A stretch of DNA of 64,000 nt from an uncultured Christensenellaceae bacterium. Its GTDB lineage: Bacteria; Bacillota; Clostridia; Christensenellales; SZUA-584. Positions 4,195 through 62,573 of the stretch are shown piece after piece. Within the stretch, counting starts at the first letter, position 1. Each line of letters opens with the position of its first letter. The notes under the pieces were generated by a model. That model searched no databases. It was not told the DNA's origin and was given only the letters and a program-made list of their open reading frames with translations. Location of the stretch: contig CAZPHS010000003.1 of the NCBI GenBank assembly GCA_964586785.1, forward strand, positions 69,062-133,061. Direction: 5' to 3'. The position numbers and the translations under genes were made by a program.

Positions 4195-5172
4195 GTGGAA
4201 TATAAGGATTATTATAAAACGCTGGGCGTTGAAAAGACAGCGCCGCAGGATGAGATAAAAAAAGCGTACAGAAGGCTCGCGAAAAAGCATCACCCGGACG
4301 CCAATAAGGGCGACAGTGCGTCGGAGGCAAAGTTTAAAGAGATAAGCGAAGCTTATGAGGTGCTGGGCGATGAACAAAAGCGCAAGAAGTACGACGCTTT
4401 CGGCAGCCGGACGCAGTTTTCGGGCGGGCATAACTTCGATCCGGCGCAGTACGGTTTTGGCGGCGGCAACGTAAGATATGAATACGCGGGAGCGGGAGAC
4501 CGCAGCGATTTTTTTAACATGTTCTTTTCCGGCGCTTTTGACGATTTGTTCTCGGCGGCGCGCGAAGGCGGCGGAGGTACATATTATTATCAAAGCGGCG
4601 ATGATATGGATTTTTTTACGGGCGGCGGGAGGCAGAGAGGCGCGTATGACGGAGAGAATATAGAGGCGCGGATAAGCTTAACGCCGCGGGAAGGCGCGGC
4701 GGGAGTTTCAAGGCAGATTGCCGTAAAAACGGAGAACGGAACGCGAACAATAAACTTTAAAGTACCCGCGGGAGTTCGCGACGGGGAAACTATAAGGCTG
4801 AAAGGTCAAGGCCGGCAGGGGCAGGGCGGCGGCAAGAGCGGAGATTTATTGCTGACTGTGAGCATGGAAAAGGACGCCAAATATATGTTTGACGGCGACA
4901 AGCTTATTATGCGTGCCGATATAAATCCGTGGGACGCGGCTCTTGGCACAAAGCTGCCCGCGGACACGCTGGACGGGCGTATAATGGTGAACGTGCCCGC
5001 CGGAGTGCAGACGGGAAGCAAAATAAGGGTGGCGGGCAAAGGATACCCTTTCAGGGGCAAGGCGAGGGGTGATCTTCTTATAGAGTTTAGCATAAAAAAC
5101 CCCGTCAGCTTGACTGACGCGCAGAAAAAGCTTTATGAGCAGCTGCGCGAGAAGTCAAAAAAACAGGAGTAA
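4195..5172 (+). CDS. J-domain co-chaperone, CbpA/DnaJ-like (no zinc-finger domain)
   Basis: DYYKTLGV...KKHHPD J-domain, G/F-rich linker and C-terminal DnaJ_C-like repeats, with no CxxCxGxG motifs. GTG start sits 6 nt after GGAGG. Confidence 0.85.
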
Positions 5173-15710: not shown

Positions 15711-15930
15711 CCGTCCGGAAAACAGTATAAAACGCCATGGCGTAAGGGTATGCGTTTTGATACGACATAAAGGGTTTATAAGCGTTGGATTGCTCCGGCG
15801 CTTTTTTAAAGTATCCTTGGAAAGACCATACCATTTCGTAAAGTAATTTATAATTATAATTGTGTTGACAGTAATATCATATATTACTATGATTAAACAT
15901 GACATTGGCCATACAAGAGGAGCTAATACA

Positions 15931-17133
15931 ATGATAAAAAAACTTATACTTTTAATTATAGTGATGTTGATGCCTTTATCGGGGTGTGAATGCCAAATGA
16001 ATAACGAGAAGGTTTATAACATAGTGCAGCCGGAAAGTAATGTGCAGCATAATATCGACGCTGATTTAATAAAAAGCATACAAAAGTTTTCCGTAAATAA
16101 GGCGGATATACTTTTTGCGGGGGACGATAATATATGTTATTCTCCGCTTAGCCTGTATCACGGACTTTCCATGCTGGCTTGCGGATTGGATAATAATTTA
16201 TTAAAACAGGTTACGGACGTTTTGGGAACCGACGATTTGGATTCGCATAATCAAAAGATGCGCGAACTTTATCAAACATTATATAATAAATCCGATGAAT
16301 ACAATTTTTCTATTGCCAATTCAATATGGCTGCAAAGGGATATGTTTAGTGACGACTTCAGAACTAAAATAGCAAAATATTATTATGGGGCGGTCAATGA
16401 TGTGGATTTTTTCGATTCAAAAAGAGTGGCCGGTGTAATATCGCAATGGGTTTCTGACAATACTGAACAAATGCTAAAGCCCAAGGTTGTTGTTTATCCG
16501 AATGATACAATAGCGATGCTTGTCAACAGCCTGTATATTTCTGATGTTTGGAGCAATAAATTCGATGAGCATTTAACAAAAGAAGATAAGTTTTATATGA
16601 CGGGCGGTAATACAACTGCCGCGGAATATATGCAAACGGTTGAATATTTGTATCCGTATATGAAGGATGAAAAGGCATTTTATGTGTCGCTGCCGCTCGA
16701 GAATGCGGGCGAAATGGTTTTTATACTGCCGAATGAGTATAACGATTTTAGTATATCGTCATGCGTAGACAATTATTTAAAAGATAACCTGCCGGAGCAT
16801 ATCGCCGAAAAGATGTCAATAAAAATACCGAAACTAAATATAGAGAATGATATAATGCTTGCGGACTATTTAGAAACTTTAGGCGTTAATTTTAAAGGAA
16901 AAGAGAACATATCGTATTCGGAACTTTCTGCTGTCTCCGAAGTACGCCAGGGGACGGCGCTCGAGCTTAACGAATTTGGTATTAAAGCCGCCGCTTATAC
17001 ATCAATAAGGGCTGATTCCGCTTTGTTTGAAGGCAACGGTGTATTTAAGTTTCATTTAAACAGACCTTTTGCATTTATGCTTTTGAGCAACGAGAAGATA
17101 CCTATATTTATAGGCAAGATAGAAAAACCTTAA
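15931..17133 (+). CDS. Serpin-family protease inhibitor, predicted lipoprotein
   Basis: Hinge and reactive-centre loop EFGIKAAAYTSIRADSAL, followed by a serpin signature-like FKFHLNRPFAFML. N-terminus MIKKLILLIIVMLMPLSGC carries a lipobox. The ATG at 15931 follows AGAGGAG. The gene is visibly AT-richer than its neighbours. Confidence 0.85.
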   Translation: MIKKLILLIIVMLMPLSGCECQMNNEKVYNIVQPESNVQHNIDADLIKSIQKFSVNKADILFAGDDNICYSPLSLYHGLSMLACGLDNNLLKQVTDVLGTDDLDSHNQKMRELYQTLYNKSDEYNFSIANSIWLQRDMFSDDFRTKIAKYYYGAVNDVDFFDSKRVAGVISQWVSDNTEQMLKPKVVVYPNDTIAMLVNSLYISDVWSNKFDEHLTKEDKFYMTGGNTTAAEYMQTVEYLYPYMKDEKAFYVSLPLENAGEMVFILPNEYNDFSISSCVDNYLKDNLPEHIAEKMSIKIPKLNIENDIMLADYLETLGVNFKGKENISYSELSAVSEVRQGTALELNEFGIKAAAYTSIRADSALFEGNGVFKFHLNRPFAFMLLSNEKIPIFIGKIEKP

Positions 17134-17322: not shown

Positions 17323-17715
17323 ATGGATTGGACGCAGGTTGTGACGGCCGCGGCGGGGCTTATTTTCACGGGAGTGGTTATACCGCTTTTAAACGCCGCT
17401 TTTGTTTGGCTTAAAAGCAAAACAAAGAACGAAGGTTTGCTTGCCGCTTTAAATGAGGCGCAGACGGTGGCGGATAATGTTGTGGCAAGCCTTCAGTCTA
17501 CAGTGGTAGACGCTTTAAAGAAAAAAAGCGAAAACGGAAAATTGACGGCGAACGAGGCTAAAGAGGTCGCCGCATTGGCGGCAAAGCAGTTTATAAGCGA
17601 TTTATCGGAGCGCTCATCGGAGCTGCTGAAAAACGGGGCGGACGATTTTGCGGCATATGTCGCCCGTTTGATAGAAGCGCGGTTGGTTCTGCTTAAGGGA
17701 GGGGAGAAGGCGTGA
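17323..17715 (+). CDS. Phage holin-like protein (LL-H holin superfamily-like)
   Basis: One N-terminal TM (VVTAAAGLIFTGVVIPLLNAAFVWL), then a charged helical tail ending ...YVARLIEARL, the architecture typical of Holin_LLH. SD AAAGGAGA. Confidence 0.55.
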   Translation: MDWTQVVTAAAGLIFTGVVIPLLNAAFVWLKSKTKNEGLLAALNEAQTVADNVVASLQSTVVDALKKKSENGKLTANEAKEVAALAAKQFISDLSERSSELLKNGADDFAAYVARLIEARLVLLKGGEKA

Positions 17716-18338
17716 ACACTGCGGATAGCATAAAAAGTTATTACGACAGCCTGGAGGAAGCGCAAAAGGCTCAGCTTTTGGCACAGTACGAGCAAAACTA
17801 TGCTCAGCTGCAAAAACAGCTTGAGAGCGCGCCCGCGCAGTATCAGGCGCTGAAAAACGAAGCTTATGTAAACAACGCGCTGGCGGAGCGCGGACGGCGT
17901 GAAACACTGGCCAACATGGGTTTAAGCGGGGCGGGCGGGACGTCGTTAAGCCTTGAGCAGCGCAACACCGGCAGTCTGCTCAGAACGCTTGGGGACGTAT
18001 CAAGGCAGCAGCAGGATTACAGCGACAATGTCAATACGGCGCTTTATAACCTTGGAGCAAACTACAAAGCCGATATATCCGGAGTTGAGGCTAAAACCGC
18101 GTCGGAGCGCATGGCGGCGCTTTCGCAGCAGGCGCGTTTTGAAGCGCAGTACGAACAGGCGCGCCAGAAAAATGTGTTCGACCAGGCGTACAGCCTTTAT
18201 AAGAAAAGGCTTATAACAGCCGCGCAGTTTACCGAGATGACCGGCATAGCGCTTAAAAAAAGCGCTAAAAAAACCGGAAGCGCCGGGTTAAGCACGGTGC
18301 CGTATATAGGAAGCTATTATGAACAAGGATACGCGTAA
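17712..18338 (+). CDS. Hypothetical Gln/Ala-rich helical protein, translationally coupled to the holin-like gene
   Basis: The GTG start overlaps the holin stop by 4 nt. No enzymatic motif or TM segment recognised. Confidence 0.5.
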   Translation: MNTADSIKSYYDSLEEAQKAQLLAQYEQNYAQLQKQLESAPAQYQALKNEAYVNNALAERGRRETLANMGLSGAGGTSLSLEQRNTGSLLRTLGDVSRQQQDYSDNVNTALYNLGANYKADISGVEAKTASERMAALSQQARFEAQYEQARQKNVFDQAYSLYKKRLITAAQFTEMTGIALKKSAKKTGSAGLSTVPYIGSYYEQGYA

Positions 18339-18363
18339 AAAAGGGGCGGCATAATACCGCCCC
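18337..18363. terminator. Hairpin shared by convergent genes (U-tract on the minus strand)
   Basis: AAAAAA-GGGGCGG-CATAATA-CCGCCCC. Confidence 0.7.
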
Positions 18364-18379
18364 GAAAGATTCGGCGTCT

Positions 18380-18994
18380 TTATAAAAGCTCCTCCGCTCT
18401 TATCGCTCCGCTTTCTATCGCTTTTTGTTTTAAAACAATATAAAGTCCGGAAAAGGCGGTGGACATATACGGTCCGGCATAAACCAGCCAGAGTATACCC
18501 GCCGTTAAAGCGGAAAGAACGCCCCACCCTATAAAGCTTAAATACATAACGAAAATACCGCCCTTATGGCCTTTTGTCATTCTCATTGAAAGCGAAAGCG
18601 CGTCTGTAGCGCGAACTTTTGGGCAGTCCGCGAGTATGTAAGGAGTCATCGAATACGATATGCCCTTTATTATGCCGGGTATTATAAATAGCAGCGACCA
18701 CAGAAAAGTAAAAAGATACATCCAAAGGACGCCGCCAAGATTGCGACCGTAGTCCGCAAAACCTATATTGAACATATCGCTTATATCGCCGGCTATGCCT
18801 TTGTATACGCGTACACAAAAATAAGCGTAGCCGACCGCCAGCGGAGGAATAATAAATAATGCCGCGAAGCCTGCGGTAGCGCCGGTTACCGCGGAGGTTA
18901 TAAGAGCAAACAGCAAATATACTCCCAGTGAAATTCCATACTGAGAGGTTACGGCGTCTTTTGCTTTTCGCTTTATTGCCGCTCTGTCAAACAT
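18380..18994 (-). CDS. DUF975-family integral membrane protein
   Basis: N-terminal FDRAAIKRKAKDAV... followed by about 5 TM segments, the layout typical of DUF975. Confidence 0.65.
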   Translation of the reverse strand: MFDRAAIKRKAKDAVTSQYGISLGVYLLFALITSAVTGATAGFAALFIIPPLAVGYAYFCVRVYKGIAGDISDMFNIGFADYGRNLGGVLWMYLFTFLWSLLFIIPGIIKGISYSMTPYILADCPKVRATDALSLSMRMTKGHKGGIFVMYLSFIGWGVLSALTAGILWLVYAGPYMSTAFSGLYIVLKQKAIESGAIRAEELL

Positions 18995-19192
18995 AAAAAG
19001 ACCTCCTTAAGTATAATAATACATAGTGCCATTATATTACTTAACATTAGTCTTTGACAAGAATAACAATACCGTAAAAAATATCAAAGTACCAAAAAGC
19101 GGACTTAACATGACTATAATGGGAACGTATGTTCGACAGTCTAGAAATTTTAAGGAGGCAAAATTACAGATAAGCAAAGACAAGCCGAAAAT

Positions 19193-19573
19193 CTATCGCT
19201 TGGTATCAGCTTTCTTGTTTTCGTTCATTGTCTTTATAAGCTTTATCGCAAGGCTTAGCTCTTCTCCGCTTATGTTGCGCTCCGCCATTTCTTCGAGCAT
19301 TTTTGGAGTTATGCCGCGGCTTGTAAGCGAAGACGGCAGCGCCGGCTGTTCAAGCGTTTTATAACGGCGGCTTTGCTCTATGCCAAGAAGATAGTCTGCC
19401 GAGCATCCGAGAGTGTCGCAAAGCTTTTCGAGAACCTCTATTGACGGGCGCTTGCGTCCGCTTTCTATCTCCGCCAGGAAAGCCTGCGTGATTCCCACGC
19501 GAGCCGAGAGCTGAGCCTGTGTAAGTCCTTGCTGTTTGCGCTTTAGCTTTAATTTTTTAGGGAGGCCGTTCAA
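19193..19573 (-). CDS. XRE-family HTH repressor (cI-like)
   Basis: QQGLTQAQLSARVGITQAFLAEIESGRKRPSIEVLEKLCDTLGCSADYLLG. TTG start. Divergent from a Cro-like gene. Confidence 0.85.
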   Translation of the reverse strand: MNGLPKKLKLKRKQQGLTQAQLSARVGITQAFLAEIESGRKRPSIEVLEKLCDTLGCSADYLLGIEQSRRYKTLEQPALPSSLTSRGITPKMLEEMAERNISGEELSLAIKLIKTMNENKKADTKR

Positions 19574-19642
19574 ATAAATAATTTCCTTTACGCAAATTGT
19601 GTTACATATGGATTATAGCCGAGAGCGATAGAATTGTAAAGT

Positions 19643-19657
19643 ATAGCTTTAAGCTAT
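19643..19657. promoter_or_regulatory. Perfect 15-bp palindrome (candidate operator) in the cI/Cro-like divergent region
   Basis: ATAGCTT-T-AAGCTAT, abutting a TTGACA -35 hexamer for the rightward gene. Confidence 0.45.
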
Positions 19658-19714
19658 TGACAATCTGCCGTATTTTGGCTAGGGTTATGCCATGGGGAAT
19701 ATGGAGGTGAGGAC

Positions 19715-19942
19715 ATGAGAGTGATACTGGCTATGATACGCGAGGGTGCGAATATTTCGCAAACACAGATTTCAAGAAACGCGGGAATATCACAGGGTTA
19801 TTATTCGGATATTGAATGTGGTTTACGCTGCCCGTCACCCGATGTTGCGGTGCGCATTGCGCGAGTGCTTGATATTCCTGAAGGCGAGATATTTCGCGTT
19901 TTTTATGACGAAAAACAAAGGAGAAAAAAAGATGCGGTATAG
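19715..19942 (+). CDS. XRE-family HTH protein (Cro-like)
   Basis: ISQTQISRNAGISQGYYSDIECGLRCPSPDVAVRIARVL. SD GGAGGTGA. Confidence 0.85.
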   Translation: MRVILAMIREGANISQTQISRNAGISQGYYSDIECGLRCPSPDVAVRIARVLDIPEGEIFRVFYDEKQRRKKDAV

Positions 19943-19987
19943 TTGTTTTAAAAAGAGACGAAGGCTCGCGGGGGAGGCTTAACTTTT

Positions 19988-20197
19988 ATGCGGCGGCAAG
20001 ACCGTTTTGAGGGTGAGGCGGAGCAGCCGCCTGCGGTTATGTTTTGCGGCTGCTGCGGCGGGCCAATAAGACATGGGTGCGGTTATTATGTTTTCGAGGA
20101 TTTGGATATCTGCGATATATGCGCAAAAAGGTTTGCATGGTTTACATTTTTGGAACAAGCCGAGCGGCGCACCGCAATGCCGGAAAACTGGCTGTGA
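19988..20197 (+). CDS. Small Cys-rich (zinc-ribbon-like) hypothetical protein
   Basis: CGCCGGPIRHGC...CDIC pairs. SD GGGGAGG 10 nt upstream. Confidence 0.5.
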   Translation: MRRQDRFEGEAEQPPAVMFCGCCGGPIRHGCGYYVFEDLDICDICAKRFAWFTFLEQAERRTAMPENWL

Positions 20198-20206
20198 GGA
20201 AGGTTT

Positions 20207-20677
20207 ATGAGAGAAGTGGAAATGTTTTTGAAGGACTACTGGTATGCCGCGCGAAGCGTCGGCAGGCTGATGCTCGATCTTTCGGCCGCGCGCCACGCTT
20301 ACGAGCAAAGCTGCCAGAGCGTTCCCTTATCCGGCGGATTTATAAAAACGGGGAGACCGCGCTACGCGGCAAACAGCGCGGTTGAGAAGGCGGCGATAAT
20401 CGCCGTAGACCAGTTTCGTGCCGAGGTTGAAAGCATAGAGCGGCGGCTTGCGGGGGAGCGGCGCACGTTGGAGTTTATAGAGCAAACCGTTAACAAAGCG
20501 AGGCTGACCGCGCCGGAAGCCGGATATGTGCGGCTGCGGTATTTTGAGGGAAAAAGCGTGGAAGCCGCGGCGCAGCGTTTGTTTTGCTCCGTCGCGACGG
20601 CGGGGCGGCTTCGCGTATCGGCGCTTGATAAAATTGAATCGGCGCTCAAAGGCGGCAAGGCGGCCGGTGCGCTTTAA
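20207..20677 (+). CDS. Phage late-gene regulator-like protein (ArpU/RinA-type, sigma-70 region-4-like HTH)
   Basis: C-terminal YVRLRYFEGKSVEAAAQRLFCSVATAGRLRVSALDKIESAL resembles a region-4 HTH. The size and N-terminal helix resemble ArpU/RinA. Confidence 0.5.
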   Translation: MREVEMFLKDYWYAARSVGRLMLDLSAARHAYEQSCQSVPLSGGFIKTGRPRYAANSAVEKAAIIAVDQFRAEVESIERRLAGERRTLEFIEQTVNKARLTAPEAGYVRLRYFEGKSVEAAAQRLFCSVATAGRLRVSALDKIESALKGGKAAGAL

Positions 20678-20731
20678 CGGAATAACTTTTAGTGTAAAAG
20701 GGCAAAATACCGTCAAAAAAGGAGTGGCGTT

Positions 20732-20956
20732 ATGAGCGAATACTTTAAGCTGACGGATATTGACACGCTGATTAAAAAGGAAGGCGATATGGCTTTTGTT
20801 TTCGACGCTTCCGTTGACGACTGGGTGCGGGACAAAAACGACATACTTGTAAACAGTTTCGAGGAGCAGGACGGAGAGCATACGGCAGAATGCGTGCCTA
20901 TAAGCGAAGACGACGCGCGCGACTGGATTGCGCGCAGAAGAGAGGGCATAGAATAA
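20732..20956 (+). CDS. Small acidic hypothetical protein
   Basis: SD AAGGAG upstream, and a terminator-like hairpin (GCGGGC...GCCCGC plus T-run) follows. Confidence 0.45.
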   Translation: MSEYFKLTDIDTLIKKEGDMAFVFDASVDDWVRDKNDILVNSFEEQDGEHTAECVPISEDDARDWIARRREGIE

Positions 20957-21429: not shown

Positions 21430-21609
21430 GCGGCGTATACACTTTAATTTATTGCGCGCGAATGTCCAATACAAACGCGGCGTGCATTAAGCGCCTTTTC
21501 GCGCTCCCTTCTCATATTTCGCTGAACAAATTCTGTATACGGGCGTAAAAAGAATAATAACAACAATGTGTATTTTTGAATATGTATAGTCATAGGGGGG
21601 TGAAAACTT

Positions 21610-21726
21610 ATGTGTTGCGGAAATTCTTACTGCCGGTGGGGACGCGGCGGCTGTTATCGCGGAGGCTGCGGAGGCTGGGGCGGAGGCTGGGGCGGCTGTT
21701 GCCGTCGCGGCTGTCGCTGCTGGTAG
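21610..21726 (+). CDS. Candidate micro-ORF: 38-aa Cys/Gly/Trp/Arg-rich cationic peptide
   Basis: Hand translation: MCCGNSYCRWGRGGCYRGGCGGWGGGWGGCCRRGCRCW, stop TAG at 21724. SD-like AGGGGGG ends 9 nt before the ATG. It lies in an otherwise unassigned gap. A 123-aa ORF on the opposite strand is a competing reading. Confidence 0.4.
   Translation: MCCGNSYCRWGRGGCYRGGCGGWGGGWGGCCRRGCRCW
21661..21697 (+). repeat. Imperfect tandem of a GGAGGCTG(C/G)(GGC) unit inside the micro-ORF
   Basis: GGAGGCTGC GGAGGCTGGGGC GGAGGCTGGGGC GGCTG, read directly. Confidence 0.8.
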
Positions 21727-21861
21727 TATAACAGGCTCGCCGTATAAGGCGGGCCGTACATTAATAATCATCTGCTCCCCCCGGGTTGTTTTTTTGGCGC
21801 GTTCGCGGCGCTCGCCGGCGTATTTATGCTTATCGGGCGCCGCGCAAATATAAAACAAATC

Positions 21862-21981
21862 TCAGCCGTCGTGAGGATTAACCTCTCCGCTGTGAACAAT
21901 CCTTATGTTTTCCGGCAGACCCAAATTGTTATCCCTGTCTTTTATCTTAGGCGATTTTTTTCTTTCCTTTTTGCGTTTCAT
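21862..21981 (-). CDS. Candidate small basic protein (39 aa)
   Basis: MKRKKERKKSPKIKDRDNNLGLPENIRIVHSGEVNPHDG. Canonical AAGGAG lies 8 nt before the ATG at 21981. The longer ORF-track version (to 22080) has no SD. Confidence 0.45.
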   Translation of the reverse strand: MKRKKERKKSPKIKDRDNNLGLPENIRIVHSGEVNPHDG

Positions 21982-22066
21982 TTGACGAAACTCCTTTCTT
22001 TGGTTTGTATTTAGTATGTGCAAACGCCAAAAAGGATAGTCATAAAAAAATGTTCGGAAACAGGTA

Positions 22067-22089
22067 TTGACAGCTAACATTTGTTAGCT
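22067..22089. promoter_or_regulatory. TTGACA -35 hexamer overlapping a perfect 8-2-8 palindrome (candidate TetR operator)
   Basis: AGCTAACA-TT-TGTTAGCT at 22072..22089, immediately upstream of the TetR gene. Confidence 0.6.
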
Positions 22090-22109
22090 TATTCTATGGA
22101 AAGAATGCC

Positions 22110-22748
22110 ATGGGGAAAAATATGACGGGAACACAAATAACAAAAGAAAAAATACTGTACACAGCGATAGATTTATTTTCCGAAAAGGGATATAAGGAAA
22201 TCACTGTACGGAAAATCGCTAAGCAGGTTGGTATAAAGGCCAGCTCAATATACAAGCATTACAAAAATAAAGAGGATATTTTAAACAGTATATTTGAATT
22301 ATTCAGGCATGAAATGAACAGGTCGGCTGTTATTGATAAACCGCTGGGGAAAATATATCCAAACATAAGTATAAAAGACTATCTTGATAAGTCCTATGAA
22401 GTATTCAAAACGGTAATGTGGACGCCGCTGACGATGAAAATTGCCAAAATAATAAATATTGAGCAGCAAAGGGATGAGTCAGTAAGAGCTTTTTTTATTG
22501 AGGAGCTGATTGATAAACCGAATTTAATACTTAAAAATGTGCTTGAAAGTATGATTGAGAATAAAATTTTAGCGCCTATTGACGCGGAAGCGGCGGCAAG
22601 GGAGTATAATGCGTATATTATTTTTCTTTATTATGAGCAGAACTTTCTTAAGCAAAGCCCGTGCCTTGAGGAAATCGACATTAAAATGAAAAAGCACAAC
22701 GAGTTTTTTATCGAGAATATATTAAAAGATGTGAGGACAATCAAATGA
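22110..22748 (+). CDS. TetR/AcrR-family transcriptional regulator
   Basis: N-terminal HTH: ILYTAIDLFSEKGYKEITVRKIAKQVGIKASSIYKHYKNKEDIL. The start could instead be the ATG at 22122. Confidence 0.9.
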   Translation: MGKNMTGTQITKEKILYTAIDLFSEKGYKEITVRKIAKQVGIKASSIYKHYKNKEDILNSIFELFRHEMNRSAVIDKPLGKIYPNISIKDYLDKSYEVFKTVMWTPLTMKIAKIINIEQQRDESVRAFFIEELIDKPNLILKNVLESMIENKILAPIDAEAAAREYNAYIIFLYYEQNFLKQSPCLEEIDIKMKKHNEFFIENILKDVRTIK

Positions 22749-23533
22749 AAGTTTTAGCTGTTATAGGAAGCCCGCGTAAAACGGGTAACACTTACAAAGC
22801 GGTTGCAAGGATTGAGCGGTTGCTGGCCGGCAGGGATAATACTATAGACTTCGAATATTTGTTTCTTGTCGACTATAATCTTAAAACCTGCACCGGCTGT
22901 TTCAACTGTATCGCAAAAGGCGAAGAAAAATGTCCGTTGATAGACGACAGGGATATAATTAAAGGAAAAATGGACGAAGCCGACGGAATCATTTTTGCAG
23001 CGCCGAGCTATGCAATGGGCGTGCCGGCAATATTTAAAAATTTAATAGACAGGTTTGCGTATACTCTGCATCGTCCATGCTTTTTCGACAAGGTATTCTT
23101 AGCCGTTATGACAATAGGCGGGGTTATGGGGGGCAAGCGGACGCTCAATCAAATCACAACGCTCGCGGCGGGCGCTAAGAAAGTAATCAAGCTGGGTATA
23201 TGCGCACCGCCGGTTGCTTTGGCCGGTATTGAAAAAAGCAGTGCCAAAAGTATAAAAAAAGCGTCGAAGGTGTTTTATAAAAGCTTGCTGAAAAAGCAAA
23301 GAAAGCTGCCGGGAATCGGAGATTGGGCATATTTTCACGCGTTTAAAAGCTTTTGCGCATTTGAGTGTTATCGGAAAGTTTGCCCTGCGGACGTCGATTA
23401 TTATCAGTCCAAAAAGGAGTATTTCTTTCCTATAAAGGGGCGTCCGTTCCGCAGGGCGGCGGGAAAGATTATTAGCGTGCTGACGCGGTTTGGGCTTAAG
23501 ATAATGGTTAAAGAGCGTCAGCGGCAAAATTAG
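22745..23533 (+). CDS. Flavodoxin-like NAD(P)H-dependent FMN reductase / iron-sulfur flavoprotein family
   Basis: MKVLAVIGSPRKTGNT flavodoxin-like fold start and CTGCFNCIAKGEEKCP cluster motif. ATGA overlap with the TetR gene. Confidence 0.75.
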   Translation: MKVLAVIGSPRKTGNTYKAVARIERLLAGRDNTIDFEYLFLVDYNLKTCTGCFNCIAKGEEKCPLIDDRDIIKGKMDEADGIIFAAPSYAMGVPAIFKNLIDRFAYTLHRPCFFDKVFLAVMTIGGVMGGKRTLNQITTLAAGAKKVIKLGICAPPVALAGIEKSSAKSIKKASKVFYKSLLKKQRKLPGIGDWAYFHAFKSFCAFECYRKVCPADVDYYQSKKEYFFPIKGRPFRRAAGKIISVLTRFGLKIMVKERQRQN

Positions 23534-24160: not shown

Positions 24161-24426
24161 TTACAAGTAAAAGTGGATTATATATTGGCTTAAATTGTTA
24201 TGAAAACAGCGGCTGTTTGGCCGTTAATATTTGGGGCAATCCCCAAATAATGCGGTCCGGGCGACTCCACTTATTTGTCCGGATACGTAAAAGAAAAGGA
24301 GGCAAGAATTATCCGCATCAGCTTGCGGTGCAGCAGTGTGGAGACCTGCTGTAAAGCCATCGTCACGTATGCGGGCGTTGGCGAGCTGCGCAGTTAGCGG
24401 ACGCTGTGCGCGGCAGAGCTGTACAA

Positions 24427-25554
24427 ATGGCAAACGTAACACTAAAAAACATCAAGAAGGAATACGACAAACATGTAGTCGCGGTGGAGGATTTCAACCT
24501 TGAAATTAAAGACAAGGAATTTATCGTTCTGGTTGGGCCTTCCGGCTGCGGAAAAACCACTACGCTTCGCATGGTGGCGGGGCTTGAAGAAATCACGGAC
24601 GGCGAGATCTACATAGGCGATACGCTCGTGAACAATATCCCTCCGAAAGATAGGGATATCGCTATGGTCTTTCAAAACTACGCTCTATACCCTCACATGT
24701 CGGTGTTCGAGAACATGGCGTTCGCGCTTAAACTTCGTAAAGAACCCAAAAACACTATAAACGAAAAAGTCAGGCGCGCGGCGGAAATATTGAATATTAC
24801 CGATTTGCTTGAGCGCAAACCTAAAGCGCTTTCCGGCGGACAGCGGCAGCGTGTTGCCATAGGGCGCGCTATTGTGCGCGAACCTAAAGTGTTCCTTATG
24901 GACGAGCCGTTATCAAACCTTGACGCTAAACTTCGTAATCAGATGCGTGCGGAAATCATCAAGCTGCGCGAGAGAATTGACACCACATTTATATACGTAA
25001 CGCATGACCAAACCGAAGCGATGACGCTTGGCGATCGTATTGTCATTATGAAAGACGGTTTTATTCAGCAAATAGGAACGCCTCAGGAGGTTTTCAACCG
25101 TCCCGCGAACCTGTTTGTGGCCGGCTTTATAGGCTCGCCGCAGATGAACTTTTTGTCCGCGGAATTAACTCTTTCCGGCGGAAAATATGTTGTGCGTATT
25201 AAAGACCAGGATGTGGTGCTGTCTGATAAAAGGCAGGAGTTCTTTAAACAAAAGCGCCAAACGCCCTGCAGGGTAATAATGGGTGTGCGTCCGGAGCATA
25301 TGGTTGTGGTACCGCCCGATACTCCAAACTGTTCAAAGGTGCGAGTGGACGTATCCGAAATGATGGGCAGCGAGGTTTACCTGCATGTTGAGTTCGGTGA
25401 AACAATTATGATTATTCGCGTTAAGACACACGATATAAATAAATATGTATTTGAGCCGGGCAAAGAGAACTACATATACTTTAAGATTCCGGCACCGGCG
25501 GTTCATTTATTTGAAGCGACCACGGAAAAGAACCTTCTACTGACAAAGAATTAA
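24427..25554 (+). CDS. msmX: Orphan carbohydrate ABC-transporter ATP-binding protein (MsmX/MalK/UgpC family)
   Basis: [13 protein letters not shown] start, [34 protein letters not shown], and a C-terminal MalK-type regulatory domain. No permease or binding-protein genes are adjacent. Confidence 0.85.
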
Positions 25555-61229: not shown

Positions 61230-62573
61230 TTAATCAAATTCTAAAAGACATAAACGGGACGACTGCATACGTCCGTCCGGCCAAAGCACATAAAGCTTAA
61301 AGTATCTTGGTTTGTCGGTTATTTTCTCGCCGGTGAGCGTATCCTGCAGTTCTAAGAATTTGTAATTGGTTACTTTGCCTATTCTTTGCGTTTGAACCGC
61401 CGTTCCCACTTTTGCCTTTGGCTCATCGTTTCCGGAAACCGTTTTTACAACCTGAAACAGCTGACCGTTTTCGTTATAGCATACAAGAGTGTACAGCGCG
61501 TTTTTATCTCTTGTCGTCTTATCCCATGTTATATCGTAATGAGTGTGTCCGTAACTTGTTTTCTTCTGGTAACGTAAATTAAACTCCGCGGGAGAGAACA
61601 CGTCGGCGCTGCTTTCTTCGCCTATAAAGTTGTAAAAATAGTCTCTAAGGCGCGGCACTTCGTCAGCGAGGGGCACATAGATGTTTTCCTGTGGGAACAC
61701 ATTATAAACCGCCGTCGTGGTTTTAGGATTATTATTGCCGTTATGCAGAACATCAAATACGTCATAATAGCGGCTTGTCTGTTTGGCGTTAGGGCTTCCC
61801 ATAAGCTGAACATAATCCTCCGCCGCCATTTCATAAATGCTCCACATATGATTTTTATAATAGTCGTCAACATTGTCAAAAAAAACTTTGCGTTCGTAAT
61901 CATCTATGTTTCTTATTTTGTAATACTCTGATTTTTTCGCCGTATCGTCATCCGAAAGAAAATAATGTATTGTAAAATGATGCCCGTATTCATGCGCGAG
62001 CGTTTTCGCTATATCGGTCACATCGTTGTATCCGTCCATATTATATAATTCTATAACGCTTTGCTGGGAAGTAAGCGAATACTGCAGAGACTGCGGAACA
62101 AACCCGGGAAGATGGAAAAACACCGGAAACTGGGCGAAGTGCGTTACATGGGTGCCCGCTATTGCTATATCTTTATCCGTTTTTGATTTGCCCGGGTACA
62201 GTATAACGCCGGAGAGCAGGCTCATTTCATCCCCGTGTTTGTTCTTTAACAGTTCGTTGTATATGCTTTTTAGCTTATCGCCCGTCCATTTATCGGAAAA
62301 ACTGATAATAGGAAACCCCATCGGAGTGGAAAAATAGTTATTATACTCCGGCACCTGTTCTAAAAGGCATACCCCGGGCGCCGGCGCGAGCCCTCCTTTG
62401 GTATATAAATAACCGGTGTCCGAATAATCGTCGCTGAATGTATAATCGAGTTTATACCGCGCCGTGTAAATATCGTAAGCGACATAAACGGCCGCGGCGA
62501 AAGCAAGCGCAGCCATAAGAAAAAATATAATCGCGGCTTTATTCTTTTTAGTATAAATCAACTCGCGCGCCAT
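61230..62573 (-). CDS. N-terminally membrane-anchored protein with an HExxH zinc-metalloprotease-like motif
   Basis: One TM (AAIIFFLMAALAFAAAVYVAYDIY). LAHEYGHHF motif in the extracytoplasmic domain. Confidence 0.5.
   Translation of the reverse strand: MARELIYTKKNKAAIIFFLMAALAFAAAVYVAYDIYTARYKLDYTFSDDYSDTGYLYTKGGLAPAPGVCLLEQVPEYNNYFSTPMGFPIISFSDKWTGDKLKSIYNELLKNKHGDEMSLLSGVILYPGKSKTDKDIAIAGTHVTHFAQFPVFFHLPGFVPQSLQYSLTSQQSVIELYNMDGYNDVTDIAKTLAHEYGHHFTIHYFLSDDDTAKKSEYYKIRNIDDYERKVFFDNVDDYYKNHMWSIYEMAAEDYVQLMGSPNAKQTSRYYDVFDVLHNGNNNPKTTTAVYNVFPQENIYVPLADEVPRLRDYFYNFIGEESSADVFSPAEFNLRYQKKTSYGHTHYDITWDKTTRDKNALYTLVCYNENGQLFQVVKTVSGNDEPKAKVGTAVQTQRIGKVTNYKFLELQDTLTGEKITDKPRYFKLYVLWPDGRMQSSRLCLLEFD

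Follow-up and report, generated by a model that had tools for sequence, protein, structure and literature searches.

Can a 38-codon open reading frame (ORF) in GC-rich, low-complexity DNA, whose product consists largely of cysteine, glycine, tryptophan and arginine, be a gene, and what would such a peptide do? The question is raised by a stretch of 64,000 nucleotides (nt) from an uncultured Christensenellaceae bacterium (GenBank assembly GCA_964586785.1, contig CAZPHS010000003.1), referred to here, at its full length, as the window. A preliminary description had placed the ORF at 21610..21726 of the plus strand, and re-reading of the sequence returned the same frame, peptide and composition: 9 Cys, 14 Gly, 4 Trp, 6 Arg and 2 Tyr, no Asp or Glu, and a net charge of +6. 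The AGGGGGG reported 9 nt before the ATG was located at 21594-21600. The peptide is indeed devoid of a leader, a signal peptide and a hydrophobic core; its cysteines start at positions 2-3, and it contains no aliphatic residue. What did not stand was the picture of a lone peptide: the ORF exists, but it is not a singleton, belonging instead to a two-paralog family with seven intact units in four species. We consider the plus frame very probably to represent a real protein-coding gene family, judged from its sequence and those of its relatives. The elements of the unit in the window are listed below; aa denotes amino acids and CDS the coding sequence.

21560..21586, plus strand: promoter-like region: AC at 21560-21561, its C 18 nt 5′ of the −10-like box AATATGTA, which spans 21579-21586
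21594..21600, plus strand: Shine-Dalgarno (SD) sequence AGGGGGG, seen in the sequence, followed by TGAAAACTT and the ATG
21610..21726, plus strand: CDS of the micro-protein MCCGNSYCRWGRGGCYRGGCGGWGGGWGGCCRRGCRCW, 38 aa, paralog group 2; ATG at 21610, TAG at 21724-21726
21668-21695, plus strand: 12-nt repeat GCGGAGGCTGGG, 2.3 copies inside the CDS, from a repeat search
21734..21761, plus strand: 3′ stem-loop GGCTCGCC-GTATAA-GGCGGGCC, then GTACAT(G); 8-bp stem in the centroid fold

Coding status of the 38-codon frame

Taken alone, the ORF is not beyond chance. The 6 kb between 19 and 25 kb of the window are overlapped by 79 ORFs of at least 25 aa, and four further frames of the stretch around 21610..21726 are likewise open, because this DNA is GC-rich and of low complexity. 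It is therefore conservation in relatives that lifts the ORF above chance.

Use of the upstream DUF6054 gene as a search handle yielded 80 genomic loci, only the closest of which, L001, contains the peptide; about 78 other genomes have DUF6054 without peptides within the 4-kb flank. L001, a Christensenellaceae metagenome-assembled genome (MAG) found as an 82% identical neighbor in the DUF6054 search, encodes the peptide MCCGNPYDRWGRGGCPYRDGFGPGFGCGRGRRCW and an upstream unit, MCGGSCYGYRGEAFSCCKCCCCCCKCCMQSRGCC. A convergent micro-ORF downstream of the unit, employed as a second handle, retrieved five assemblies, independent of one another, that belong to the species of the window and encode an identical peptide; in one of them, a strain with flanks 2% diverged, positions 21536-21765 are unchanged. 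The same search led to a third species (L107-L109) with two tandem units, MCCGYSYGRWGRGCRCSFPCRGGWGCGGWGGGWGCGRGRRCW and MIGGFGCQGWGRPFGGCCRCVCCCWYKCCCCRPWGCW. Finally, a mis-called shadow ORF used as the query uncovered the units MCCGYPYGPWGRGGYPWRGGWGGSWGCCCRRGWRCW and MCGGSCFRNWGEPFGCGCSKCCCCCFCKCFCVRPWCIC in a fourth species (L110), which was reached by no other route. The coordinates of the relatives, including a decayed copy in the window itself, are as follows.

L001, 2728..2832: group 2 ortholog, from sequence comparison
L107, 5013..5141, minus strand: group 2 ortholog, from sequence comparison
L110, 8046..8156, minus strand: group 2 ortholog, from sequence comparison
L001, 2469-2573, plus strand: group 1 unit, hyper-Cys micro-protein MCGGSCYGYRGEAFSCCKCCCCCCKCCMQSRGCC
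L107, 5383-5496, minus strand: group 1 unit, hyper-Cys micro-protein
L110, 8318-8434, minus strand: group 1 unit, hyper-Cys micro-protein
Window, ~21430..21500, plus strand: decayed group 1 remnant including a degenerate hairpin, ~50% identical to L001 unit 1

So far, the family is known from four related uncultured Christensenellaceae-like Clostridia, three of which have both paralog groups in tandem. The source habitats are of the landfill or digester type (JGI 3300015214, SRR8449813, SRR8925713). The three syntenic orthologs in group 2 are 34-42 aa long, and A, V, L and I are absent from all four group 2 peptides. The group 1 paralogs lie upstream of the ortholog, each with its own box, SD and hairpin, and include the Cys maximum of 14 residues in 34 aa (up to 41%), Cys content ranging from 15 to 41% across the family units. 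The position of the decayed remnant in the window is occupied in L110 and L107 by a nitroreductase gene and an intact hyper-Cys unit, and the inter-unit spacer 3′ of the remnant is conserved relative to L001. The window has lost its upstream group 1 paralog together with the nitroreductase gene, keeping group 2 alone.

An ATG with an SD at 8-9 nt is kept in 7/7 units, and in each the stop codon lies just ahead of the hairpin. Group 2 units measure 105, 111, 117 and 129 nt, those of group 1 105, 114 and 117 nt, and every difference is a multiple of 3. When the window was compared with the group 2 unit of L107 in a protein-guided codon alignment, differences fell on first, second and third codon positions 6, 2 and 16 times, with 13 synonymous versus 7 non-synonymous codons; the group 2 units of L110 and L001 show 0 synonymous versus 12 non-synonymous codons. 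Substitutions include Arg CGC to Arg AGA and, twice in L001, Trp to Phe by way of TGG to TTT. The plus frame is made of stop-prone codons (TGY, TGG and TAY), in which 5-9% of random substitutions create a stop. Under neutral simulation, just 20-40% of descendants remained open, depending on the pairwise distance, and at the window-L107 divergence 0.13% were both open and within the ten residue types observed, a figure to be read with the caveat that this alphabet was defined post hoc. The frame that had been named as the rival, the minus-strand ORF 21487..21858, encodes 123 aa and is interrupted in L001, and its start is not conserved; it was rejected as the gene. By comparison, plus frame, start, SD and stop are all kept in the three further species. 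It is on the SD/ATG, length, codon-position, simulation and minus-ORF evidence taken together that the plus frame is judged to be protein-coding.

Public databases had not annotated this gene family earlier. The preliminary description could name no family for the peptide, and our searches agree. Profile scans of Pfam, NCBIfam and PHROGs with the peptide or its relatives gave no family; phmmer against 1.84 billion protein representatives, an exact-sequence look-up among 15 billion proteins and a homologous-protein search with the 42-aa ortholog returned nothing. No match was obtained for the peptide in the PDB, by tblastn against plasmids or by blastn against phages, a hairpin-plus-stop pattern found nothing in viral contigs, and Rfam gave only sub-threshold plant microRNA matches at 21951-22057, judged to be chance. 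Protein databases return nothing because gene callers skip the gene or call shadow frames: in nine of the nine public assemblies of these species that were examined, the gene is uncalled or swapped for a shadow ORF. Such public gene calls include the following.

L103, 1439-1723, plus strand (locus coordinates): 94-aa minus-strand frame
L107, 4982-5122 and 5289-5492, minus strand: Ala-rich +1 frame, 46 and 67 aa
L110, 8001-8477, plus strand (locus coordinates): 158-aa minus-strand frame fusing two units

The gene is a concrete case of an annotation blind spot. Overlapping Ala- or Pro-rich shadow frames may score better, so that standard gene callers would, if this holds, systematically miss such genes, and many such families would then be hidden in GC-rich, low-complexity intergenic stretches. 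If translated, the peptides enlarge the small-protein repertoire of uncultured Clostridia by an orphan family of micro-proteins with an extreme composition.

Architecture and evolution of the units

Each unit is self-contained, comprising a −10-like box, an SD site, the ORF and a GC-rich stem-loop of 8-10 bp, and can be described as monocistronic. The box of the window has counterparts at the same place in the other units, CATATGTA, CATATATT or CATATACA, and is aligned in 7/7. The spacing between these boxes ((C/A)ATATGTA, CATATATT or CATATACA) and the SD is fixed, and 17-20 nt upstream of the box lies a C that is preceded by an A in three of the seven. A sigma-70 promoter was rejected for the unit, the sigma-70 scan having called none at 21560..21586. 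Every unit (7/7) also has a run of five or six G followed by TGA or CGA, 8-9 nt ahead of the ATG.

A stem is found 3′ of all seven units, with exchanges between G-C and G-U pairs; the first unit of L001 has a different, 10-bp stem in the same place. The stems are followed by no U-tract, and the terminator scan of the window missed the stem-loop because it lacks a T-run. We regard the structure as a putative terminator or mRNA-stabilizing hairpin. Its motif, GGCGGGCCRTACAT, occurs beside these genes only (115 loci compared), a confinement on which a repetitive extragenic palindromic (REP)-like repeat was rejected. Directly after the stem, (G/A)TACATG (21756-21761 in the window) is kept in 7/7 units though the stem arms differ between groups; it could be a processing site, a binding site or part of an unusual terminator.

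Among orthologs the expression signals are more conserved than the CDS: identity is 85-97% over the proximal 32 nt (promoter plus SD) and 83-97% in the hairpin, compared with 66-83% in the CDS and 42-78% further upstream. Persistent features of the CDS are the termini MCCG... and ...R[GR][CRW]RCW, an RWGRG/PWGRG motif, G-aromatic-G repeats and the family composition: Cys, Gly, Trp/Tyr/Phe, Arg and Pro are present, whereas aliphatic residues are absent and acidic ones nearly so. Most Cys positions, in contrast, shift among orthologs (C8 to G or D, C15 to Y, Cys20 to other residues), and short repeats expand and contract between units. Since signals, termini and composition persist while Cys positions vary, selection appears to act on composition rather than on a fixed fold; to judge by these comparisons, it keeps expression, frame, termini and, above all, composition in a fast-evolving family. 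A single-sequence AlphaFold2 model of the peptide has a confidence (pLDDT) of ~50 and hints at a β-hairpin at residues 8-17.

Candidate roles in the context of the locus

By analogy, and with somewhat less than even confidence, we favor a role for the peptide as a mother-cell-expressed, disulfide-crosslinking micro-protein of the spore surface. The proposal builds on the conserved coding frame, the unit anatomy, the composition-level constraint and the presence of a spore-coat operon on the same contig.

L115, 562-1637: cotJA-cotJB-cotJC (PF11007, PF12652 and the 196-aa PF05067 Mn catalase CotJC), ~9 kb before the window start on the same ENA contig

The ENA contig is 100% identical to the window over the stretches compared, and cotJABC hints that the organism is an endospore former or a descendant of one. 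The cotJA gene is preceded by a CATATTAT box. In Clostridioides difficile, CATATTAT is the canonical −10 box of mother-cell sigma factors, sigma-K promoters having CATATAAT with an AC −35 and a sigma-E promoter having ATA-N16-CATATATA (PMC3789822). The −10-like boxes of the units resemble CATATTAT, CATATAAT and CATATATA as well as the cotJA box, from which we infer a mother-cell sigma-E/sigma-K assignment. As to sigma factor, timing, location and cross-linking, sigma-E/sigma-K-type promoters would drive abundant synthesis of the peptides in the mother cell at a late stage of sporulation. The peptides would be laid down on the spore surface as a low-complexity, 'keratin-like' matrix, whose many thiols, possibly with the aromatic residues, would cross-link to an insoluble layer once conditions become oxidizing. 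The proposed parallel is with CdeC and CdeM, the lineage-restricted Cys-rich exosporium proteins of C. difficile. A composition that stays fixed while Cys positions vary is more readily reconciled with a matrix or a cross-linker than with a defensin-like framework or a folded metal site.

Several points weigh against a spore-surface role. The promoter assignment rests on a short box whose −35 match is weak and, the units being homologous, the shared box counts as few independent observations. No U-tract follows the 3′ hairpin. Besides cotJABC, no sporulation gene was recognized in ~85 kb around the locus, and pattern scans for hallmark sporulation proteins, run on only ~100 kb of sequence, returned nothing. 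The family is so far restricted to four species; scans of viral contigs (IMG/VR) and Joint Genome Institute (JGI) metagenomes with an MCCGN...CW pattern or back-translation gave chance matches only, as checked by translation. The neighboring phage-like regulatory module and redox enzymes would fit other roles, and for most Christensenellales MAGs an inability to sporulate is predicted (PMC12536801).

Of the roles first suggested for the peptide, a spore-coat component has gained some support, from cotJABC, the mother-cell-type boxes, the monocistronic units, the strong SD and the conserved composition. The antimicrobial and metal-binding roles are weakened by the lack of conserved Cys positions and of any nearby exporter, immunity gene or maturase. 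If the spore-surface reading is right, the family offers a minimal, chemically tractable model of disulfide-driven coat or exosporium assembly in anaerobes, and would demonstrate that tandem, fast-evolving, low-complexity peptides suffice to build such layers. A 38-aa peptide can be synthesized, and metal, redox or antimicrobial readings are equally easy to probe with synthetic material. A broader generalization strikes us as speculative and rather doubtful: a class, not seen before, of leaderless peptides of 34-42 aa, built of about seven residue types with 13-41% Cys, selected for composition and termini instead of sequence, systematically missed by gene callers and polymerizing by way of thiols and aromatic residues to an oxygen-hardened 'bacterial keratin' spore layer of strict anaerobes.

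The alternatives draw on the genes around the unit. In the window the order is serpin, holin-like gene, DUF975, a cI-like repressor (minus strand), a cro-like gene, small proteins, a phage-type activator, a 74-aa ORF, DUF6054 (phrog_25410), the peptide unit and the convergent 39-aa micro-ORF; downstream follow a TetR and NADPH-FMN-reductase pair, DUF4064, a MalK-type ABC ATPase, ferredoxin/rubrerythrin, rubredoxin and Fur. The neighbors with coordinates are these.

15862-17133: serpin gene, just upstream of the phage-like module
20207-20677: phage-type regulator, with phrog_36 and sigma-factor PHROG matches and a weak Sigma70_r4 match in Pfam
21862-21981, minus strand: convergent micro-ORF MKRKKERKKSPKIKDRDNNLGLPENIRIVHSGEVNPHDG, 39 aa, hydrophilic, with SD GAAAGGAG; a neighbor, outside the peptide unit
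22110-22748: TetR regulator, overlapping the NADPH-dependent FMN reductase at 22745-23533; the pair stands beside the micro-ORF in 4/4 species
24406-25554: MalK-type ABC ATPase, not an exporter or immunity candidate

Much of the neighborhood drawn in the preliminary description is borne out. Its upstream phage-type regulator (20207-20677) matches phage transcription-regulator families, the second, convergent micro-ORF is present at 21862-21981 on the minus strand, and the AT-rich TetR islet is seen in the 33-36% GC of the stretch where the TetR gene begins at 22110 (33-38% GC in 22000-23000 against 45-55% around it). A phage-like module at 17323-20956 comprises a holin-like ORF (phrog_13712), a divergent pair of cI-like and cro-like helix-turn-helix genes, the phrog_36 activator and small ORFs. 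No phage structural genes were seen within it, which makes a degenerate prophage or the remnant of a satellite probable. The unit does lie at the junction of this cluster in the window, as had been described, but the two need not go together, the peptides being encoded in L107 with no such module. In the L107 locus, DUF6034 genes stand instead, along with adhE and a zinc-ribbon ORF; the gene order of L110 is that of the window plus a nitroreductase. Only DUF6054, the micro-ORF and the TetR/FMN_red pair are constant neighbors across loci. The PF00881 nitroreductase gene lies directly upstream on the same strand in L107 and L110 and is missing in the window and L001.

The convergent micro-ORF is itself 82-90% conserved in the four species (L001 2964-3086, minus; L107 4446-4562, plus; L110 7784-7903, plus) and is called in public data (P0001, P0002), and it has no Pfam, NCBIfam or PHROG family. 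An invariant CATACTA box lies upstream of it (22012-22018) in 4/4 species, even where the end of adhE precedes. We take this box to match the −10 consensus CATnnTA of Bacillus subtilis forespore sigma-G, and the micro-ORF possibly encodes a forespore-expressed minor spore protein resembling the small acid-soluble spore proteins (SASPs). In L107, the peptide unit and the micro-ORF are separated by an inserted 59-aa zinc-ribbon-like ORF (CPQC...CEFC; 4707-4886, plus). Elsewhere in the window, a 447-aa ORF without a Pfam match (61230-62573, minus) lies between miaB and mutS, the position occupied by cotE in B. subtilis. The MiaB of the window is identical to that of assembly GCA_041656035.1.

Among the alternatives to a spore-surface protein, a cytoplasmic, metallothionein-like thiol or metal buffer (for Zn, Cu, Fe or Fe-S fragments), or a sacrificial thiol in the oxidative or nitrosative stress of a strict anaerobe, survives best, although we consider it rather unlikely. 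The high Cys content, with CC, CxC and poly-Cys runs, notably in group 1 (CCKCCCCCCKCC in the first unit of L001), speaks for it, as do the redox genes nearby: the nitroreductase of L107 and L110, the TetR/NADPH-FMN-reductase pair, Fur, rubredoxin and rubrerythrin. However, these neighbors may merely reflect synteny of close relatives, and the peptide persists in the window and L001 without the nitroreductase. Moreover, no metallothionein family of Pfam or NCBIfam matches, Cys positions vary among orthologs, and aromatic residues make up 16-25% of the peptides, whereas metallothioneins are typically poor in them.

That the peptide is the cargo of a degenerate prophage, either a leaderless cationic antimicrobial or a lysis-associated peptide acting on competitor or host membranes, is unlikely. 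The net charge of +4 to +7, the Arg/Trp/Cys-rich sequences and the hinted β-hairpin at residues 8-17, at a pLDDT of only ~50, would agree with such an activity, and the upstream cI/cro/activator genes, the holin-like gene and DUF6054 (phrog_25410) with a phage origin; the 0 synonymous versus 12 non-synonymous codons between the group 2 units of L110 and L001 resemble diversifying selection. On the other hand, the peptide has neither signal nor leader, the ±10 kb around it yielded no dedicated exporter, immunity gene or maturase, and the nearby ABC ATPase is of the MalK type. The Cys framework is unconserved, unlike that of disulfide-defined antimicrobial peptides (AMPs), L107 has its peptides without the phage-like module, and no match was obtained in phage genomes or IMG/VR.

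Very unlikely is a non-protein element, that is, a structured RNA or DNA with a 5′ box and a 3′ hairpin in which the open frame is a by-product of GC-rich low complexity. Flanks more conserved than the ORF, four other open frames, gene callers that pick other frames, and G-tracts with G-quadruplex potential are what such an element might present. It would leave aside the SD and ATG, optimally spaced in 7/7 units, the third-position bias, the synonymous Arg switches, a stop-prone frame that is never interrupted and a restricted residue alphabet, and Rfam gave no match.

We give an equally small chance to an RGG-box-like micro-protein that binds nucleic acids or forms condensates in dormant or stressed cells. 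The motifs RWGRGG, YRGG, GRGRR and GWGGGWG resemble RGG/aromatic sticker-spacer sequences, composition is conserved over exact sequence, and the low-confidence model would fit disorder; but in the group 1 paralogs it is Cys, not RG, that dominates, and the reading is a pure analogy.

The slimmest chance falls to a ribosomally synthesized and post-translationally modified peptide (RiPP) precursor of the azol(in)e or thioether type, with enzymes encoded elsewhere and a nitroreductase-fold protein as the FMN dehydrogenase as in streptolysin-S-like systems: the Cys/Gly-rich peptides do resemble the Cys/Gly-rich cores of thiazole/oxazole-modified microcins (TOMMs), and the PF00881 gene is immediately upstream on the same strand in L107 and L110, but there is no leader, since conservation extends from Met1 onwards, the four loci yielded no enzyme of the YcaO, cyclodehydratase, radical-SAM or lanthionine kind, neither the window nor L001 has the nitroreductase, and no RiPP-precursor family of NCBIfam matches.

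Comparison with known systems

None of the named families tested shares its defining features with the peptides, which, as read from their sequences, form an orphan and narrow family. An attenuation leader peptide was rejected, as there is no downstream gene on the same strand, and a type I toxin, which the convergent pair of small genes might recall, was rejected for want of a hydrophobic membrane-inserting segment. SCIFF/ranthipeptide precursors were set aside because Cys residues begin at positions 2-3 and there is no leader, no NCBIfam match and no adjacent radical-SAM maturase; within ±10 kb, no radical-SAM gene was found in the window, L102, L107 or L110, the nearest being miaB, 41 kb away. 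A disulfide-framework cationic AMP or leaderless bacteriocin was rejected on the variable Cys framework, the lack of an exporter or immunity gene and the lack of a PDB match.

The peptides share small size, a very high Cys content and CC and CxC motifs with the metallothioneins SmtA/BmtA and MymT; unlike these, they match no family, have unconserved Cys positions and are rich in Trp/Tyr/Phe and Arg. Metallothionein membership was rejected on the missing Pfam match and the replacement of Cys8, Cys15 and Cys20 in orthologs. With precursors of the streptolysin-S and microcin B17 (TOMM) type they share a Cys/Gly-rich core and, in two of four loci, an adjacent nitroreductase-fold gene; they differ in having no leader and no YcaO or cyclodehydratase partner, and the nitroreductase is dispensable for keeping the peptide. 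TOMM membership was rejected, the leader being absent and YcaO absent from all locus gene tables.

YjcZ-family genes often occur in tandem copies. The peptides resemble YjcZ (TIGR01732) in this respect, in being shorter than 50 aa, in their Gly/Cys/aromatic-rich stretches and in having been overlooked by early annotation, but the window and both L001 peptides give no NCBIfam match at E ≤ 10. The gene yjcZ, which encodes a tiny B. subtilis protein, belongs to the sigma-K regulon (PMC517825). A hydrophobic core and membrane association are described for YjcZ proteins (sORFdb preprint), whereas the peptides described here are without any aliphatic residue. In composition, the peptides would be closest to the Gly/Cys/Tyr-rich ends of YjcZ-type proteins. 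YjcZ membership was rejected, since the peptides have neither a match to the TIGR01732 profile nor the central hydrophobic segment.

Keratin-associated proteins of the high-glycine-tyrosine and ultra-high-sulfur classes combine Cys, Gly and aromatic residues, are encoded by tandem multigene families, form a disulfide matrix and evolve rapidly in repeat length. The peptides are like these mammalian proteins in Cys/Gly/aromatic composition and tandem genes, by analogy only; the keratin-associated proteins are eukaryotic, stand in a secretory or structural context and are much longer.

CdeC and CdeM of C. difficile are Cys-rich, sigma-K-controlled, lineage-restricted cross-linkers of the exosporium (PMC9542656). 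Along with proteins of the CotY-Z type, they make up a class of Cys-rich spore-surface morphogenetic proteins defined by function and not by homology. The peptides resemble them in being Cys-rich and lineage-restricted and in the disulfide cross-linking proposed for them, and the mother-cell sigma control of CdeC and CdeM has a possible counterpart in the mother-cell-type −10-like box. Unlike CdeC and CdeM (19-45 kDa), the peptides comprise 34-42 aa, have a far more extreme composition and show no sequence similarity to them. Small Cys-rich, low-complexity proteins of spore formers do have precedents, and with these we propose a kinship in kind only.

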